From a virus (taxonomy: Duplodnaviria > Caudoviricetes): a stretch of 64,000 nucleotides of DNA. A model generated the notes under the pieces. That model had not been told where the DNA came from, made no database searches, and worked only from the letters and a program-made list of their open reading frames with translations. Shown here in pieces: positions 4,325 to 11,954 of this stretch (position 1 is the first letter of the stretch; every line of letters begins with the position of its first letter). The DNA is taken from positions 1 through 64,000 of IMG/VR virus record IMGVR_UViG_2974655483_000001; one strand, written 5' to 3'. A program made the translations under genes and the position numbers.

Positions 4325-4744
4325 ATGCGATATCAAGGTAAATACCGTCCTTCCTTTCCGAGGAAGTATAAAGGCGATCCTAGTAATGTGATTTATCGCT
4401 CCTCTTGGGAGTATAAATTTATGAAATGGTGTGACAATACACCATCTGTTGAAGAGTGGGGTAGTGAAGAAATTATCATTCCTTATGTTTCTCCAGTTGA
4501 TGGTAGAAAGCATAGATATTTCCCAGATTTTTATGTTAAAGTTGGTAGGAAAAAATATCTGGTTGAAGTAAAACCCTACAAACAGACTAAAGAACCCAAA
4601 ACTCAAAAAAGGCACACAAAACGATATATTAATGAAGTTGTGACATATGCTGTCAATCAAGCAAAGTGGAAAGCAGCAACAGAATTTTGTAATGATAATA
4701 ATTGGGAGTTTATGTTAATCACAGAAAAGGAACTTAAGGTATAA
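4325..4744 (+). CDS. gp4: head completion nuclease (TnsA-like)
   Basis: KYKGDPSNVIYRSSWE..FM.WCD, WGSEE..IPY.SP.D...HRYFPDF, VEVKP, NQAKW.AA. Confidence 0.93.
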   Translation: MRYQGKYRPSFPRKYKGDPSNVIYRSSWEYKFMKWCDNTPSVEEWGSEEIIIPYVSPVDGRKHRYFPDFYVKVGRKKYLVEVKPYKQTKEPKTQKRHTKRYINEVVTYAVNQAKWKAATEFCNDNNWEFMLITEKELKV

Positions 4745-4745
4745 A

Positions 4746-5510
4746 ATGGGTATTCCAAAGCAAGAATCTGCAAGATATAGCTCTCTTCAGGAGTTTATTG
4801 GATTTTCTAAAACGAATGATAATGCTCCTAGTTTTACTAACTTATTTTCGGTGCATTTTTCTACTCCTCCGATGATTGCGGAGCAAACTGCAGGCAATAG
4901 ATTTAGACCCGAAGTTGGAGATATGTCATTGCTTTTGGATTACTACGCAAAAAATGTAAATCTTCCTAGCAAACAAATCACAACAGGTCAAGTTACTAAT
5001 GTTGGTGCTGGATATAAGTTTGCAACTGGAACAGCATTTAGTCAAATCAGTATGACGTTTACTATGCCTCGTTCTCAGCAGACAAGGAATTTCTTTGAAC
5101 GATGGACAAGTTTGATGGCGAATGATGCTAATCAATATACAGATTACTATGATACTTACTGTGCTCCTGAGGTAATAATCTATAAGTGGGAGAGAGGTGG
5201 TGGAGACTATGCATATTCAGATCCAAGGTCTATTAGAGCACTTAGAGATTCTGGAGATGATTTTTTACTTGCAAAAAAGAATAAACTGACTGCTGCTTGG
5301 GTATTAAAAAAGGTATTTCCATATAACATCGGTTCTGTTCAGTTAGATAATAGTCAGGCAAAGACAATGGATCTTAGTGTTCAGTTCTATTATGAGAGAT
5401 ATAGATTCTTTACTGAAGACCAATTTGATGCTCCTGGAGTGCGTAATATCATTACCATTCCATCTGGTGATAATGTATATACCGCTGGAGAAACTGATTC
5501 TCAGCGATAA
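4746..5510 (+). CDS. gp19/gp54-family tail tube-like protein (probable tube initiator)
   Basis: VNLPSK, F..SMTF, R.FFERW, L..VFP..IGSVQLD, L.VQFYYE: tail-tube fold motifs. Confidence 0.65.
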   Translation: MGIPKQESARYSSLQEFIGFSKTNDNAPSFTNLFSVHFSTPPMIAEQTAGNRFRPEVGDMSLLLDYYAKNVNLPSKQITTGQVTNVGAGYKFATGTAFSQISMTFTMPRSQQTRNFFERWTSLMANDANQYTDYYDTYCAPEVIIYKWERGGGDYAYSDPRSIRALRDSGDDFLLAKKNKLTAAWVLKKVFPYNIGSVQLDNSQAKTMDLSVQFYYERYRFFTEDQFDAPGVRNIITIPSGDNVYTAGETDSQR

Positions 5511-5541: not shown

Positions 5542-6252
5542 ATGGCATTACCTAAATTAAATGTACCTAAGTACAAATTGAAACTACCATCTGATGGTAG
5601 GACTGTGAACTATAGACCATTTCTTGTTAAAGAAGAGAAGTTACTTCTCCTCGCTACTGAAACGGGAGAGCAAGAAGAGATTATTGGTGCAATCAAAAAC
5701 ATCATTACACAATGTACTGATATTACTTCAGTTGATAAACTAGCAACATTTGATATTGAATATTTGTTCTTACAAATTCGTACAAAATCTGTTGGTGAAA
5801 ATGTTGATGTGACAGTAACTTGTCCCGATGATGGGGAAACTGAAGTTGAGATTTCGATTCCTTTAGATGATATTAAAGTCGTAAAGACTAGAGGTCATAA
5901 AAAAGAACTGAAACTTGATGATGAGATTGCAGTTACTATGGGATATCCCAATCTCGAATCTTTTGTAGAGTCGAATTTTGGGGAGGATACCAACCAAATT
6001 GAGCAGATTTTTGAAATGTCAGCAGGTTGTATTGAAACTATTGCTGATACCAATCAAATCTATGAATGTAAAGATTTGCCAAAATCAGAAATCTTAGAAT
6101 TTCTTGATCAACTGAGCAGCAAACAGTTTGGGGAACTTCAAAAATTCTTTGAAACTATGCCTAAACTGTCACATAAAGTACAGGTAACCAATCCTAATAC
6201 TGGTGTCGAAAGTGAAGTTGTTCTTGAGGGATTAGCGAGTTTTTTCGCATAG
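5542..6252 (+). CDS. gp26: baseplate hub assembly chaperone
   Basis: MALPK...P.Y.L.LPS....YRPFLVKEEKLLL, FDIEYLFLQIR.KSVGE, FFETMPKL, LEGLASFF. Confidence 0.92.
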   Translation: MALPKLNVPKYKLKLPSDGRTVNYRPFLVKEEKLLLLATETGEQEEIIGAIKNIITQCTDITSVDKLATFDIEYLFLQIRTKSVGENVDVTVTCPDDGETEVEISIPLDDIKVVKTRGHKKELKLDDEIAVTMGYPNLESFVESNFGEDTNQIEQIFEMSAGCIETIADTNQIYECKDLPKSEILEFLDQLSSKQFGELQKFFETMPKLSHKVQVTNPNTGVESEVVLEGLASFFA

Positions 6253-6302
6253 CACTCCTTCACACCAATCTTCGTTCATATTATGAAGGCAACTTTTCCT
6301 TA

Positions 6303-6440
6303 ATGCATCATCATAAATGGAATATCGAACATATTGATAATCTGATGCCCTGGGAAAAGGAAATCTATGTGAATTTGTTAGTACAATTCTTAAAAGAAGA
6401 AGAACGTAGAATGAAGGAGCAGCAAGCAGCAGGTGGCTAA
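6303..6440 (+). CDS. gp51: baseplate hub assembly catalyst (45 aa from its ATG; frame is open back through the gp26 slippery site)
   Basis: Not in ORF track; translated by hand: MHHHKWNIEHIDNLMPWEKEIYVNLLVQFLKEEERRMKEQQAAGG*, with the gp51 MPWE.EIYV.LL motif. Confidence 0.85.
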   Translation: MHHHKWNIEHIDNLMPWEKEIYVNLLVQFLKEEERRMKEQQAAGG

Positions 6441-9201
6441 AATACAACCCTATAAGCTAGTTAATCCTGGAGTATCGTCGGTTACTACTCCAGCAATTTC
6501 TGCTGCAAAAGTACAAACATTAGCACTTAATCGTCTTGGCACTGCTGTTGGATCATTATCAAGTGTAGTTGGCGATTTAGGGAAAATATCTACTCTAACA
6601 ATTAAGAGTAAGGAAGAGAATGAAAAGGCAAAAAGAAGAAGTGAGCGTAGAGAGAAAGATTCTTCTTCTGAAACTAAGCAAGAGTCAGCAGCGTTAAAAA
6701 AAGAGGGAGCTAATAAAAATTCACTTTTAGGTAGAAAGATAAAAAAAGGTACGAAGGGTATTTTTGGAACGATTGAAAAATTCCTTAGTCCTCTTGGCGG
6801 GTTATTAGTAAAACTTTCTACATTTACTCTTGGTATAAAACTTTTAGAATATCTAGGTGATCCTAAGAATATTGAGAAGATTAAATTATTCTTAGATAAA
6901 TCACTCTTTGTCTTCAATAAGTTAAAAGACTTTGCGATGAGCATTTATAATGCTTTTACTTCTGGTCTAGATTTTATTTTTGGTAAAGAGACGACCATTG
7001 GTGAGCGTCTTGATGCGTTTGGTAAAATTGCTCTTGCAATCGGTGGTATTTCTGGAATAATTGCAGCAGCAGGTGGTATTCGAGACCTTCTTGATGCGCG
7101 AGATCTTCTTGATGGTCCTGATAAACCAACAAAACCAGGGAAACCGCAAAAACCAGGTGTAGTAAAACCAGGTCCCAAATTATCACCTTTCCAATTAGAG
7201 CAAGCACGAAAGATTGCCATCAAAGAAGCTGTTGAAACAACTGGTGAACAGGCTGGTAAAAGAGCTACTGGACAGGTTTTTAAATATGGTGGTAAAAATA
7301 TATCTAAGGCAACGCATCGTTTCTTCCTGAAAGTTATCGGAAGAGGTGGTGTATCAGGATTAAAGAAATTAATTGGTGCATTTAAGTTACCACTTATAAG
7401 TGGTTTACTGACTGCTGCATTCAATTGGATTATGGGTGAGTCTATCGCCAAATCGCTCCTGATGGGTGTTGGTGATGGTATTGGTACATTCTTAGGTGGT
7501 TGGGCAGGTGGCGCTATAGGTGCTCTCGGTGGTCCTGCAGCACCGATTACAGTACCTTTAGGTGCATTTGTTGGTGCAATGCTTGGTGGTATTGCAGGTG
7601 AGGCAATCGGCGGATACTTATATGACATGATGCTAGGGAAGGCAAACTTAGGTGCTGACCTTGGTGCTATGGGCAAGAAACTTGTCAATGGTATGAAGAC
7701 TCTTTGGAATGACTATATTATGAATGGAGATTTCTGGGCAGGTGCCTGGGAAACGTTCCTAAACATCGGTCAAGATGTTATGAGTAGTGCCTGGGGATCT
7801 ATGATGAATATGTGGAATCTTGCTAGCGGTTCTGCAGCAGATTTCTTTACTCATATGATGGAAGTCTCAAAACCCTGGCGTGAAGCAATGTGGGATGCCT
7901 TCCAAAAATATGTTATTAATGGTCCTCAAGAATTAGCAAAAGTTATCCTTGAAACTATTCTATCTGGTGCTAAAGGAGTTGGTAAACTCTTTACTGAGGG
8001 TGGACCTATTCTGATGTCCATTATTAAAACTTCTGCTGAATCTGCGATTTCGTGGGCATTTAATAAAGTCAGAGGTTTAGTTGAAGGAATCAGAGATGCT
8101 GTATTAGGATTCAGACCAAGAGAAGCACTTAGCAAGTTGGGTTCGTTGTTAGTGATGCTTGGAGCACCGCTGACACAAGTTCCTGAGATGTTGCAATCTG
8201 TTGGTAAGGCAACTAGCAAAAAGATTAGTGAAGCATTAGCAAAAACAAAAGAAATTGGTCAGGCGATTATTGAACCCATCCTGGGATATATTGAACCTGC
8301 TTTTAAGGCAATTGATGAAACCTGGAAAATTGTTAGTAACCTTCCAGGTTATATTTACGATAACACTATCAAACCAATTTTTGATTCTATTGGTGCTGTA
8401 TGGAACTCTGGTCCTGCAATCTGGGACTTTTTACATAGACCAAATACATTCCAAGAAATTACAGGACAAGAAGTTCCCCAACAAGAAATGTTCCTTGGTG
8501 GTGTAGTTAAAGGTGTTAAGAATGCATTTAGTAGTGTAGGTAACGCAGTTAGTAATGTTATGCAAAGTCCTGTTGGTCAGGTGCTTGGAACTGCTGCATC
8601 GTTTATTCCTGGTGCTGCACCTATCATGGCAGGTATCAACACACTTGCTACGGGCAATCCTATGTCAATGTTAGGAATGATTCCTGGCGTAAGTGGGATT
8701 ATGAGTCAAGTTGGTAATTTTATGAATGGTCCCATTGGCAATATTGCATCTAATGTATTAAGTGGAAACTTTGGAGGTGCTTTGAGTACTGGACTTGGGA
8801 TGCTTAACCCTTCTATAGGACAGTTTGCTGGTTCTATATTGAGAGGTGGATTGAATCCTATGAACATGATTCAAGGTGCTGCAAGTCACTTTGGACTTGG
8901 CGGCATTTATAATGCAGTTAGTGGTATGGCGGGTGGAGATATGACATCTGGTATAGCAGAGATAGCAGGACAACTAGGAATTGATCCTAAAGTTATTGGC
9001 GGAGTACAGAATGTAGCATCTCAAGCATTATCTGAAGGTGGCATGTCTTCTGAGTATGCTATGAATCAGGCATTAGAATTCATTCCCATTCCTGTTATTC
9101 TTGAGAAGTTGGTGCCTATTCCTACTGCTGTTCCCATAAATACTGGTGGCAGTGAAGTAGTTAATGCGACTCCTTCTAGCATAACGACGAGATCACAATA
9201 A
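6433..9201 (+). CDS. tape-measure-like protein A
   Basis: 922 aa, Gly/Ala-rich amphipathic helical, W/F-spaced repeats, GxxxG segments; directly after the tail chaperones. Confidence 0.6.
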   Translation: MAKIQPYKLVNPGVSSVTTPAISAAKVQTLALNRLGTAVGSLSSVVGDLGKISTLTIKSKEENEKAKRRSERREKDSSSETKQESAALKKEGANKNSLLGRKIKKGTKGIFGTIEKFLSPLGGLLVKLSTFTLGIKLLEYLGDPKNIEKIKLFLDKSLFVFNKLKDFAMSIYNAFTSGLDFIFGKETTIGERLDAFGKIALAIGGISGIIAAAGGIRDLLDARDLLDGPDKPTKPGKPQKPGVVKPGPKLSPFQLEQARKIAIKEAVETTGEQAGKRATGQVFKYGGKNISKATHRFFLKVIGRGGVSGLKKLIGAFKLPLISGLLTAAFNWIMGESIAKSLLMGVGDGIGTFLGGWAGGAIGALGGPAAPITVPLGAFVGAMLGGIAGEAIGGYLYDMMLGKANLGADLGAMGKKLVNGMKTLWNDYIMNGDFWAGAWETFLNIGQDVMSSAWGSMMNMWNLASGSAADFFTHMMEVSKPWREAMWDAFQKYVINGPQELAKVILETILSGAKGVGKLFTEGGPILMSIIKTSAESAISWAFNKVRGLVEGIRDAVLGFRPREALSKLGSLLVMLGAPLTQVPEMLQSVGKATSKKISEALAKTKEIGQAIIEPILGYIEPAFKAIDETWKIVSNLPGYIYDNTIKPIFDSIGAVWNSGPAIWDFLHRPNTFQEITGQEVPQQEMFLGGVVKGVKNAFSSVGNAVSNVMQSPVGQVLGTAASFIPGAAPIMAGINTLATGNPMSMLGMIPGVSGIMSQVGNFMNGPIGNIASNVLSGNFGGALSTGLGMLNPSIGQFAGSILRGGLNPMNMIQGAASHFGLGGIYNAVSGMAGGDMTSGIAEIAGQLGIDPKVIGGVQNVASQALSEGGMSSEYAMNQALEFIPIPVILEKLVPIPTAVPINTGGSEVVNATPSSITTRSQ

Positions 9202-11954
9202 TGGCAACTGTACAAAAAAGTTCAAAAATTAATTTTTATAAGTTCGTACAGGTAAAAGATCCTTCGGGCAGTGCTAATCCTGCTGTAAAGGACTCTGATA
9301 TTGCTTTAGCGAAGTCAATAAATACGAGCACTCGTGCAATCAACAACTTAGGAGAGACTGTAAATTCTCTTGCTAAAGTTCTTGTAGATCTTAAAAAAAT
9401 TAATCTTGGTAACTTAGAAGCACAAAGGGCTCAGAAAACTAAATTCAAAGCAGAATATACCAAACCCCAAAAGCAGAAGCAAGGTGGTCTTGTATCTGGT
9501 CTTTTATCAAAAAGTGGAAGTTTTCTAGAGGGACTTCTTAATTTATTTGGAGGTTTATTTAAGTTAGCAGTTATCATCCCAGTTCTTAAATGGTTGGGTG
9601 ATGAAAAAAATCAAAAAGCACTTGTTGCAGGTTTAGAAGTTATTAAGACGGTTGTCAAGTTTATCGCAGATTGGGCAAAATTTAGTATTACAACTACTAT
9701 TGATGGTCTCTATGATTTATTCAAAGATGATGCAAGTTGGCAAGAAAGACTTTTAGGATTTGGTAAAGCAGTTGTTGGTATTGGTTCAATTGTATTGGGT
9801 CTTAGATACTTAAGAAATCCGACTAAGATTATTACTGATATTGCAAAGGGTGTTGGATCTCTGATTTCTCTTATTCGCGGCCGCCGTGGTGGTCGTCTTG
9901 GTAGAAGGGGAGGTGGTCTTGCAAAGATAGCGGTTGGAGCTACTGTAGCAACAACCGCAGTCATGGGCATCAATGCATTAAATAATAAAGATGGGGATGA
10001 AGAGTTTGCACAAGGAGGTTCGGTAAAGAATCTTCCAAGTAGAGCACAAGGAGGATTTATTAATGGACCGCAATCAGGATATCCCGTATCACTGGATGGG
10101 GGGAGATCAACCTCGTTCATTGGACACGGACGTGAATATGTTGCTAGAAAGAGCAATGGGGGAGCTTTCGTCGTTCCTCTTAATACTCCTGGAACAAAAA
10201 CGCAACCCCATCTAACTTCTAAAAGGATGGGTGAAGCACAGAGTCAAGGATTTGACATCGGTGGAATGGTGAATGCATTCCAAGGTGGATTTAATCCAGG
10301 AAAGGGTTTTAATGATCCCATGTCTCAGAATGTTATGCCTAGTTTTGCACCTGAGTCTAAATTTATGTCTCAAGGTGGTGGACTTCCTAGTTTTGCAAAT
10401 GGAGGTGGATTAAATAAGCAAATTTATATGCATTGGACAGCAGGCGGATACAACTGGAAAAATGGTCCATATCATACTACTGTTCAGGGCAATGGTGATC
10501 TATATAAGCATAAACCTTATGACCAACATACTGCACACACATATTATAGAAACACAGGAAATGTAGGTCTTTCGGTCGCTGCAATGAAAGACTACAACTG
10601 GAATTCTTTTGCCCCCAAACCAAAGCAACTTGAGGCAATGACTGCTGAAGCAGCGGTAATTGCTAAAGGTTGGGGTTGGAAACCAGGTGATGTAAGTATT
10701 AGAAATGTTATGACGCACGCAGAAGCAGCGTCGAATAAAGATGGTAGGTCACCTCATGATAACTATGGTCCTACTTGGTGGGGTGGTACGGGTGAAAGGT
10801 CTGACTTACATAAGTTAAAGGGATCTGATAAAGATGGTACAGGTGGCGATAAACTTCGTCAAATGATGAAAAAGTATATGGGTATGAAAAACCCTCCTAT
10901 ATTAAATGAATCTGGACCTGGTGCTGGTGGTGCTGGTGGTCCTAATGGACAACTTAATAGTGGTGAATATAATTTACTACAACGTTTAGTTCTTGCTGAG
11001 GCAGGTGGTGAGGGTAAATTAGGTATGGCATTGGTAGCACGCAGTGTATTGAATCGTGCAGGACTTATTCAATCTAATAAGGTTGGACCTGGAATGTTCA
11101 TGGCAAAAGATAAAAGTGTTACTGGCGTCATTATGGGTAGACGTCAATATCAACCTGTAGAAGATGGATCAATTAATGACGCAAGAAGTAGTACACAGAT
11201 GGCACAAGCTAGAGACGCAATTGAGATGGCAAGAAATACTACAAGTCTTAGGGGCAATCTTGAGGCAGAGGGTATGCGTGCAGAGAATATTAATTATTTG
11301 ATGGGATCAACTGGATTTAGAACTGGTTCTGCGTTCAATGATGAGTCTCAAAATGTTAATGTTGTTAAGTATAAGAATCACTTCTTCAATACTGCAGGAA
11401 ATGCCAGTGTAAAAACTCATATTGCTGAGATTGAAAATGGTGGTACTGGTGGCGGCATTGGTGCTGGTGATTATGGTTCTTCTTATGCAGCAAATTCTGG
11501 TTTTGATATGGACGGCGGTCGTACTGTTTCTAGTGGTGGTAAGACTATTCTTGGGAATTTTTCAGCACCAGTGGCAGGACAACGAAGAAGTGACCAAAAG
11601 TATACATATGGTAATCGCGAAGCAGAGATTAGAGCACAGGGCAGACGAGGCAGTCTTTCACAATCCACTCAACAGCGTAATGATGCAAGATCTCAAATAA
11701 CTGAAAGGACACGCGAGATGGTAGGTGCTGTTATAGAACAAGTTGGACAAGCAAATAATATGAACGCTGAGATGGTTGCAGCAGCATCATCAGCAGTCCA
11801 GAACGCAATGGCAGCAAGTAGACCTGGACCTCCTGTAGTTGTTGGCGGAGGAGGAGGAGGTTCTTCAGGTGGTGGTCTTGGTGGCGCTCTCGTCGGAACT
11901 GCTGCTGCTCTTCTCGGTTCTACTAATAATCCTCTTAAAGGTATCTTCAAATGA
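9201..11954 (+). CDS. tape-measure-like protein B with N-acetylmuramoyl-L-alanine amidase and SleB/Hydrolase_2 domains
   Basis: IYMHWTAG...YH...AHT..RN...GLS...VMTHAE (Zn amidase); LQRLVLAEAGGEG..GM..VA..VLNR...QYQP (SleB-type). Confidence 0.7.
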   Translation: MATVQKSSKINFYKFVQVKDPSGSANPAVKDSDIALAKSINTSTRAINNLGETVNSLAKVLVDLKKINLGNLEAQRAQKTKFKAEYTKPQKQKQGGLVSGLLSKSGSFLEGLLNLFGGLFKLAVIIPVLKWLGDEKNQKALVAGLEVIKTVVKFIADWAKFSITTTIDGLYDLFKDDASWQERLLGFGKAVVGIGSIVLGLRYLRNPTKIITDIAKGVGSLISLIRGRRGGRLGRRGGGLAKIAVGATVATTAVMGINALNNKDGDEEFAQGGSVKNLPSRAQGGFINGPQSGYPVSLDGGRSTSFIGHGREYVARKSNGGAFVVPLNTPGTKTQPHLTSKRMGEAQSQGFDIGGMVNAFQGGFNPGKGFNDPMSQNVMPSFAPESKFMSQGGGLPSFANGGGLNKQIYMHWTAGGYNWKNGPYHTTVQGNGDLYKHKPYDQHTAHTYYRNTGNVGLSVAAMKDYNWNSFAPKPKQLEAMTAEAAVIAKGWGWKPGDVSIRNVMTHAEAASNKDGRSPHDNYGPTWWGGTGERSDLHKLKGSDKDGTGGDKLRQMMKKYMGMKNPPILNESGPGAGGAGGPNGQLNSGEYNLLQRLVLAEAGGEGKLGMALVARSVLNRAGLIQSNKVGPGMFMAKDKSVTGVIMGRRQYQPVEDGSINDARSSTQMAQARDAIEMARNTTSLRGNLEAEGMRAENINYLMGSTGFRTGSAFNDESQNVNVVKYKNHFFNTAGNASVKTHIAEIENGGTGGGIGAGDYGSSYAANSGFDMDGGRTVSSGGKTILGNFSAPVAGQRRSDQKYTYGNREAEIRAQGRRGSLSQSTQQRNDARSQITERTREMVGAVIEQVGQANNMNAEMVAAASSAVQNAMAASRPGPPVVVGGGGGGSSGGGLGGALVGTAAALLGSTNNPLKGIFK

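Follow-up and report, generated by a model that had tools for sequence, protein, structure and literature searches.

The window analysed here, a stretch of 64,000 nucleotides (positions 1 to 64,000 of IMG/VR virus record IMGVR_UViG_2974655483_000001), derives from a T4-like cyanomyovirus of the S-RIM12 type and is 98.9 % identical to KX349307 over the region in question. At this locus, an open reading frame (ORF) encoding gp26 is followed by a short ORF usually annotated as gp51, and our comparison of this junction across relatives makes it very probable that a conserved programmed −1 frameshift yields both gp26 and a gp26-gp51 fusion protein. The features that constitute the junction are the following:

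5542..6252, + strand: gp26 ORF (ORF list), encoding the short zero-frame product of 236 amino acids with the C-terminus ...LEGLASFFA
6225..6227, + strand: TGA closing the −1 frame upstream, which leaves only 6228-6252 for entry from gp26 into the gp51 frame
6226..6229, + strand: Shine-Dalgarno (SD)-like GAGG, 10 nucleotides before the heptamer, a candidate stimulator
6240..6246, + strand: slippery heptamer T_TTT_TTC, at which the −1 shift is proposed to occur while tRNA-Phe occupies both the P and A sites
6250..6252, + strand: gp26 stop codon TAG, one codon past the heptamer
6246..6302, + strand: stretch annotated as "intergenic", in the −1 frame R-I-A-L-L-H-T-N-L-R-S-Y-Y-E-G-N-F-S-L
6257..6289, + strand: possible 6-bp stem (6257-6262 with 6284-6289), 10 nucleotides 3′ of the heptamer
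6303..6440, + strand: ORF usually annotated as gp51 (ORF list), 45 amino acids from ATG 6303

The 3′ end of gp26 reads AGT TTT TTC GCA TAG, so that the first T of the heptamer falls on codon position 3 and the run assumes the zero-frame X_XXY_YYZ arrangement. No stop codon interrupts the −1 frame between 6228 and the TAA at 6438-6440; it reads G-I-S-E-F-F-R-I-A-L-L-H-T-N-L-R-S-Y-Y-E-G-N-F-S-L-M-H-H-H-K-W from 6228 onwards, and ATG 6303 sits in this frame. A slip on the heptamer would thus join 235 gp26 residues to 64 extension residues starting with R-I-A-L-L-H, giving a protein of 299 amino acids whose predicted tryptic peptides around 6246-6302 are ...VVLEGLASFFR, IALLHTNLR and SYYEGNFSLMHHHK. 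A sequence-only reading of the window had pointed to this heptamer, to the −1 path into gp51 ending at 6440 and to a fusion of about 299 residues, and all of its coordinates proved correct; the GAGG 10 nucleotides upstream of the slip site and the absence of a stop codon in the 6246-6302 frame were likewise confirmed. Its statement that the gp51 ATG at 6303 has no evident ribosome-binding site needs amending, as a poorly spaced SD-like GAAGG is present at 6285-6289, 13 nucleotides 5′ of this ATG.

gp26 itself belongs to Pfam family PF12322 (T4_baseplate; E 2.1e-77, 260 bits at a cut-off of 24.5, profile positions 2-219) and matches phrog_150 with an E-value of 1.3e-90. It is the one PF12322 copy in the record's 174,670-bp genome, which was judged complete. 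In KX349307, the ORF at 6303..6440 is annotated as a separate hypothetical protein. The sequence TTTTTTC occurs 16 times in the window, with 20 ± 4.6 occurrences expected; the heptamer by itself is within chance, and its significance derives from conservation.

This conservation was assessed in a close set of 80 IMG/VR loci with gp26 61-96 % identical, from which 62-63 distinct junctions were analysed. All 80 loci carry TTTTTTC in phase, followed by the stop one codon on, and share the −1 peptide FFR[IVL]ALLH...NFAL[M/I]HHHKW. TAG is the only gp26 stop codon in this clade, a consequence of the −1 frame, which crosses it as NTA GCN (I/V/L, then Ala). The run marks the precise point at which sequence variation passes from the gp26 frame into the −1 frame: upstream of it, column entropy is highest at the third positions of the gp26 frame (1.04-1.32 bits vs 0.3-0.5), and, beginning with the codon that follows the gp26 stop, it is highest at the third positions of the −1 frame (1.22 vs 0.34-0.50).

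The 17 codons from the gp26 stop to the annotated Met show a ratio of non-synonymous to synonymous polymorphism (pN/pS) of 0.20 in the −1 frame, compared with 1.41 and 2.28 in the other frames; the corresponding values are 0.21 for the gp26 tail and 0.14 for the gp51 core. When 48 extensions are aligned, every invariant residue (F1, F2, H8, N18 and F19) lies ahead of the Met at position 22, in accordance with the sequence-only reading, which had called for conservation of the protein upstream of the gp51 Met: this part contains the most conserved residues of the extension. ATG is retained at the position equivalent to 6303 in 46 of the 63 close junctions, and the codon at this "gp51 start" is ATT or ATA in 17. 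Neither ATG, GTG nor TTG occurs between the point where the −1 frame opens and the "gp51 start" in 42 of the 63, and none of these codons was found in the −1 frame upstream of the run in any of the 63. The −1 frame of the relatives opens 10-34 nucleotides 5′ of the gp26 stop, and exactly at TTTTTT in loci L018, L019, L030, L094, L096, L100 and L139 as well as in phages MC09 and B23; in L018, L019 and L030 the TAG abuts the T run. Taken together, the low pN/pS ahead of the Met, the missing start codons, the late opening of the frame and the invariant residues indicate that the "intergenic" stretch 6246-6302 is translated and argue against initiation inside it; judged by these comparisons, translation cannot start within it.

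The same arrangement was encountered in distant relatives. T_TTT_TT[C/T] in combination with the −1 phase was found in the Prochlorococcus phage P-SSM2, the Pelagibacter phage HTVC008M, in which the stop follows directly after the run, the Sinorhizobium phage phiM7, the Aeh1-like Vibrio phage VmeM-32, the Stenotrophomonas phage Mendera, the Synechococcus phages MC09 and B23 and Vibrio phage F86. A second clade, with gp26 at about 45 % identity, retains T6, the last base often being A (TTTTTTA); its zero frame changes from FF to FL, and its −1 frame still encodes FF. Across the gp26 family, which comprises 4,446 clusters at 50 % identity, 115 of 150 representatives end in FF plus 0-3 residues, and one subgroup, whose loci carry TTTTTTA, ends in ...SFL plus one residue.

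Pooling yielded 123 distinct full-length junctions, which are related sequences, so that the counts do not represent independent events. T6N is present in phase in 123 of 123, the first T always at codon position 3; the sequence-only reading had made retention of the heptamer and the −1 phase in relatives a check on its proposal, and both are retained throughout. The final base is C in 93 junctions, A in 24 and T in 5. The first T belongs to AGT, TCT, GCT, GAT or AAT, codons for S, A, D or N that all end in T. The middle codon is invariably TTT (122 of 122 junctions), compared with 75 % TTT for Phe elsewhere in gp26, and the run measures exactly T6 in 117 of 122 (range 6-8 T). Amino acid changes around the unchanged T6 recur in several clades. 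Such a pattern is what selection on the slippery heptamer, and not on the gp26 protein, is expected to leave. In one subgroup (L131:1290-1332, P0146, P0162, P0170 and P0177), the zero frame extends 8 codons past the heptamer (...DFFVLPSLTTA), compared with 0-2 otherwise, and FFRIALSHD is preserved in the −1 frame; how far the zero-frame stop lies from the slip site thus varies.

The extension itself provides the link to T4. The peptide encoded by 6246-6437 matches phrog_634 (baseplate hub assembly catalyst) with its residues 2-63 at profile positions 58-119 (E 3.8e-31), a match that reaches upstream of the annotated Met. An all-helical structure is predicted for the extension, with a predicted local distance difference test score (pLDDT) of 83; its helix 11-24 spans Met 22, so that a start at the annotated Met would cut the helix. 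T4 gp51 (249 amino acids) matches PF12322 with residues 1-201 (E 3.9e-52) and phrog_634 positions 2-103 with residues 147-246. The window fusion aligns with it from residue 12 to 280, unbroken at the junction, where ASFFRIALLH is placed opposite DVFKLLVNPD. T4 gp51 is a gp26 paralogue plus extension: it shares with the window fusion both the gp26-like domain and the phrog_634 extension. The end of T4 gp26 (208 amino acids; ...GLKEFFELL) resembles that of the window's short form (...GLASFFA), and all of these proteins belong to PF12322, so far as sequence goes making the short and long forms the likely counterparts of T4 gp26 and gp51, respectively. In T4, genes 26 and 51 are diverged paralogues on opposite strands without overlap, whereas this phage has a single gene; T6 was not found at the homologous spots of the two T4 genes. 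Given one PF12322 gene here and two paralogues in T4, this phage can apparently make the long form only by recoding.

T4 gp26 and gp51 act as chaperones of baseplate hub assembly (Leiman et al. 2010, PMC3004832, Table 2), and gp51 is needed for hub assembly yet is not part of the particle (Leiman et al. 2010, PMC3004832). The gp51 of cyanophages and marine vibriophages was described as lacking the first ~200 residues, at only ~20 % of the T4 length, and Aeh1 as lacking gp51, with no explanation given (Sullivan et al. 2010, PMC3037559). In VmeM-32 (L084, 2130-2402), nothing is annotated between gp26 and the next ORF, and the −1 frame following T_TTT_TTT matches phrog_634 with an E-value of 9.6e-8; this unannotated −1 ORF probably explains the remark that gp51 is missing in Aeh1 (PMC3037559). 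Vibrio phage D531 (L086, 2055-2255) is devoid of the heptamer, reading ...TCA CTT TTC AAG TAA, with an ATG directly after the stop in the −1 phase. Its small ORF matches phrog_9633 rather than phrog_634, and D531 possibly represents a lineage whose extension has turned into a small gene of its own. Most members of the gp26 family, including T4 gp26, contain two CxxC pairs (a 4-Cys zinc ribbon), of which the gp26 of this phage keeps one of four Cys (...VTCPDDGETE... and ...NPNTGVESE...); judging from the alignment, its clade seems to have lost the zinc site.

As to elements that might stimulate the slip, E. coli dnaX shifts on A_AAA_AAG with the help of an upstream SD-like stimulator and a downstream hairpin, and the lambda G-T slip is unassisted and of low efficiency. 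Like dnaX, the window has an SD-like GAGG 10 nucleotides upstream of its heptamer. The Glu codon of this motif is GAG in 42 of 67 genes, compared with 27 % GAG elsewhere in gp26, and GAAGG stands in place of GAGG in 24 of the 63 close junctions. GAGG overlaps the codons of the conserved Glu-Gly in LEGL, so that of the sequence-only proposal of a dnaX-type stimulator the motif stands, whereas any stimulating role is inseparable from coding. No conserved hairpin as in dnaX was found in the window's clade: the fold of 6247-6330 is no more stable than that of shuffled sequences (z −0.52), and the RNAalifold consensus of 50 sequences reaches only −1.24 kcal/mol. The stem 6257-6262/6284-6289 was discarded as a conserved stimulator, as it shows no compensatory change and its outer pairs are broken in 15 of the 50 sequences. 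A further difference from dnaX is that the shifted frame ends almost at once there, whereas in the window it would add a functional domain. Here, too, the slip may proceed unaided and at low efficiency, and because no conserved stimulator was found, we put the frameshift efficiency at probably a few per cent.

Xu, Hendrix and Duda reportedly described in 2004 that a −1 frameshift is conserved in the tail assembly chaperone genes of long-tailed phages, with lambda gpG/gpGT as an example. In the HK97 record NC_002167, gp13 is likewise annotated together with a frameshifted long form. The lambda G/GT pair and the proposed pair of the window have in common a short and a long product, a −1 slip on X_XXY_YYZ near the 3′ end of the upstream ORF, a downstream ORF without a start codon of its own and a location between a tube-family gene and a tape-measure-like gene. 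They differ in the slippery site, U_UUU_UUC here and G_GGA_AAG in lambda, and in the proteins, gp26 being about twice the length of the lambda/HK97 chaperones, with extra domains and in most family members the 4-Cys zinc ribbon, and the extension comprising only 64 residues and falling outside PF06223 (gpT).

The AlphaFold model of gp26 (pLDDT 94.5) was compared with 48,161 solved chains. For residues 1-90, the top three were 2ob9 (Z 7.5), 3fgx (7.3) and 3klu (7.1), the last being YqbN, a prophage XkdN-type chaperone; the next, unrelated structural match to the gp26 model reached Z 4.8. The alignment with the HK97 chaperone 2ob9 covers 83 residues at a root-mean-square deviation of 4.0-4.3 and Z 7.5-7.6, values below 8 being ones that can reflect a common arrangement. 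A second comparison, carried out on Foldseek's own candidates, agrees, and 2ob9 is Foldseek's only high-probability row; the Foldseek search of the model against the PDB gave no match at E ≤ 0.001. At the sequence level, the gp26 profile matched none of the sequences of solved structures, gp26 matched none of the Pfam chaperone families (e.g. PF06222, the HK97 gp13 family) even at E 10, and a profile-profile comparison of gp26 with the HK97 gp13 family by hhalign returned a probability of 0.4 %. The model thus suggests, without proving it, that the N-terminal domain of gp26 is homologous to tail assembly chaperones, and on sequence grounds the pair appears not to be assignable to the known chaperone families. 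The equivalence to G/GT put forward by the sequence-only reading accordingly gains support from the architecture of T4 gp51, from the chaperone-like N-terminal fold and from position, whereas sequence homology to the lambda/HK97 families is undetectable.

Two neighbouring genes define this position:

4746..5510, + strand: tube-like protein, phrog_45 (E 1.6e-66)
6433..9201, + strand: tape-measure-like protein of 922 amino acids, phrog_167 (E 1.4e-11) and a glycine-zipper match

The order tube-like protein, gp26, gp51 and tape measure had been proposed from the sequence, and it is borne out by the phrog_45 match upstream, which the tube-like protein shares with the T4 tail tube initiator gp54, and by the phrog_167-matching gene directly downstream, whose start overlaps the stop codon of the extension. 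At the equivalent position, HTVC008M carries a gene labelled putative tape measure; from weak similarity and position, the 922-residue protein would be a tape measure. The proteins encoded by 6433-9201 and 9201-11954, each of about 920 residues, resemble one another over some 200 N-terminal residues (27 % identity, E 5e-10). The latter has weak matches to Amidase_2 and the cell-wall family Hydrolase_2, and PHROGs labels both as "endolysin", though the first looks like a tape measure; these neighbours may be a tape-measure-like pair, one of them with lytic domains. Further upstream, a gp4-like head completion protein (4325-4744; phrog_218, E 9e-70) also matches PF08722, the TnsA endonuclease N-terminal family, with an E-value of 1e-22.

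Several points weigh against a programmed frameshift at this junction. Its support comes from sequence comparison and models, the junction counts stem from related sequences and not from independent events, and with neither a conserved downstream structure nor an SD-like motif separable from coding, the efficiency may be low. A run of T6-T8 could also permit slippage by RNA polymerase, and with the ATG at 6303 kept in 46 of the 63 close junctions, some independent initiation of a 45-residue protein is possible. If the polymerase were responsible, it would add one U on T6, and a minority of mRNAs would encode the fusion in a single frame; the two proteins would be identical under either mechanism. 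That the conserved element is a homopolymer of 6-8 T and that no RNA stimulator was found speak for this explanation. Efficient polymerase slippage, however, usually requires runs of 8-9 or more, for which this one is short; moreover, it has not been lengthened in most lineages (T6 in 117 of 122), and it always keeps the exact X_XXY_YYZ phase. We consider transcriptional slippage unlikely on these grounds and infer that the ribosome rather than RNA polymerase is the slipping agent.

Two independent genes, with a free gp51 of 45-69 amino acids whose synthesis begins at ATG 6303 or, farther upstream, at a non-canonical codon, possibly by re-initiation past the gp26 stop, and no fusion at all, is how the locus is annotated in every GenBank record examined, and the frequent ATG, the GAAGG 13 nucleotides ahead of it and the layout of D531, where an ATG follows the gp26 stop directly and no heptamer exists, fit such an arrangement. 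It is difficult to reconcile with the stretch ahead of the Met, which has invariant residues and is under purifying selection at the level of the flanking genes, with the 17 of 63 junctions missing the ATG and the 42 of 63 without a canonical start before it, and with those phages in which the frame opens at the F-F codons and leaves no room for an earlier start. It also leaves unexplained why T6 is invariant amid changing zero-frame residues and why T4 gp51 has a full gp26-like domain, and we regard it as very unlikely. Least credible of all would be a chance or artefactual layout, be it a common T-rich heptamer that happens to lie near a stop codon, TTTTTTC not being over-represented in the window (16 vs 20), or a homopolymer error hiding one continuous ORF. 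The latter variant can point to the metagenomic ENA contig P0271 (231,914 bp), which encodes a continuous gp26-gp51 ORF of 308 amino acids with the junction ...SFFACFLLH. Its 96 %-identical IMG/VR relatives L172-L174, however, carry the ordinary heptamer followed by TAG in the normal two-frame −1 layout, so P0271 was set aside as a natural fused form; either the fusion is hard-wired in this rare case or the contig was misassembled. An artefact is excluded by the recurrence of the two-frame layout in over 120 distinct sequences, taken from isolates as well as metagenomes and sequenced independently.

For the programmed −1 frameshift, we propose the following course of events. The majority of ribosomes would read AGT TTT TTC GCA and stop at TAG 6250, producing the short form of 236 amino acids. 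A minority would slip back by one base on T_TTT_TTC with two tRNA-Phe bound, continue with CGC ATA GCA ... up to the TAA at 6438-6440 and release the 299-residue long form, which would consist of gp26 residues 1-235 and the 64-residue helical extension. The annotated 45-residue gp51 would then be merely the tail end of this extension. By analogy to lambda G/GT and to T4 genetics, both forms would serve as non-virion chaperones in hub and tape-measure assembly, and the same analogy suggests their binding partners: the tape-measure-like product of the next gene would be held by the chaperone-like domain at the N-terminus, and in the rarer long form the extension would add a contact that nucleates assembly.

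A full-text literature search, with subscription journals outside its coverage, found no report of a gp26/gp51 frameshift. As the sequence-only reading had assumed, the two are usually annotated as separate genes: none of the ten GenBank records of S-RIM12, P-SSM2, HTVC008M, phiM7, VmeM-32, Mendera, D531, MC09, B23 and F86 has a joined coding sequence at the site. A −1 frameshift in the tail chaperone genes is regarded as near-universal in long-tailed phages, and T4-type phages have been annotated without it. On the broader proposition that gp26/gp51 are the T4-superfamily version of this universal tail chaperone pair, with the one-gene −1 frameshift as the ancestral and commonest state (cyanophages, pelagiphages, rhizobiophages, Aeh1-like phages and many uncultured ones) and the two genes of T4 as a derived duplication, we are evenly divided.

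Read as a frameshift pair, gp26/gp51 would account for the short gp51 of cyanophages and vibriophages and for the "missing" gp51 of Aeh1 recorded in 2010. Annotations could be corrected accordingly in hundreds of genomes of cyanophages, pelagiphages and other T4-like phages, in which gp51 or a hypothetical protein of 45-60 amino acids is given an arbitrary start. The same reading provides a testable function for T4 gp26 and gp51 and a natural comparison between two ways of setting a chaperone ratio, one gene with recoding and two genes. If true, few recoding events in marine viruses would be as widespread as this one, because the gp26 family with its 4,446 clusters is very large.

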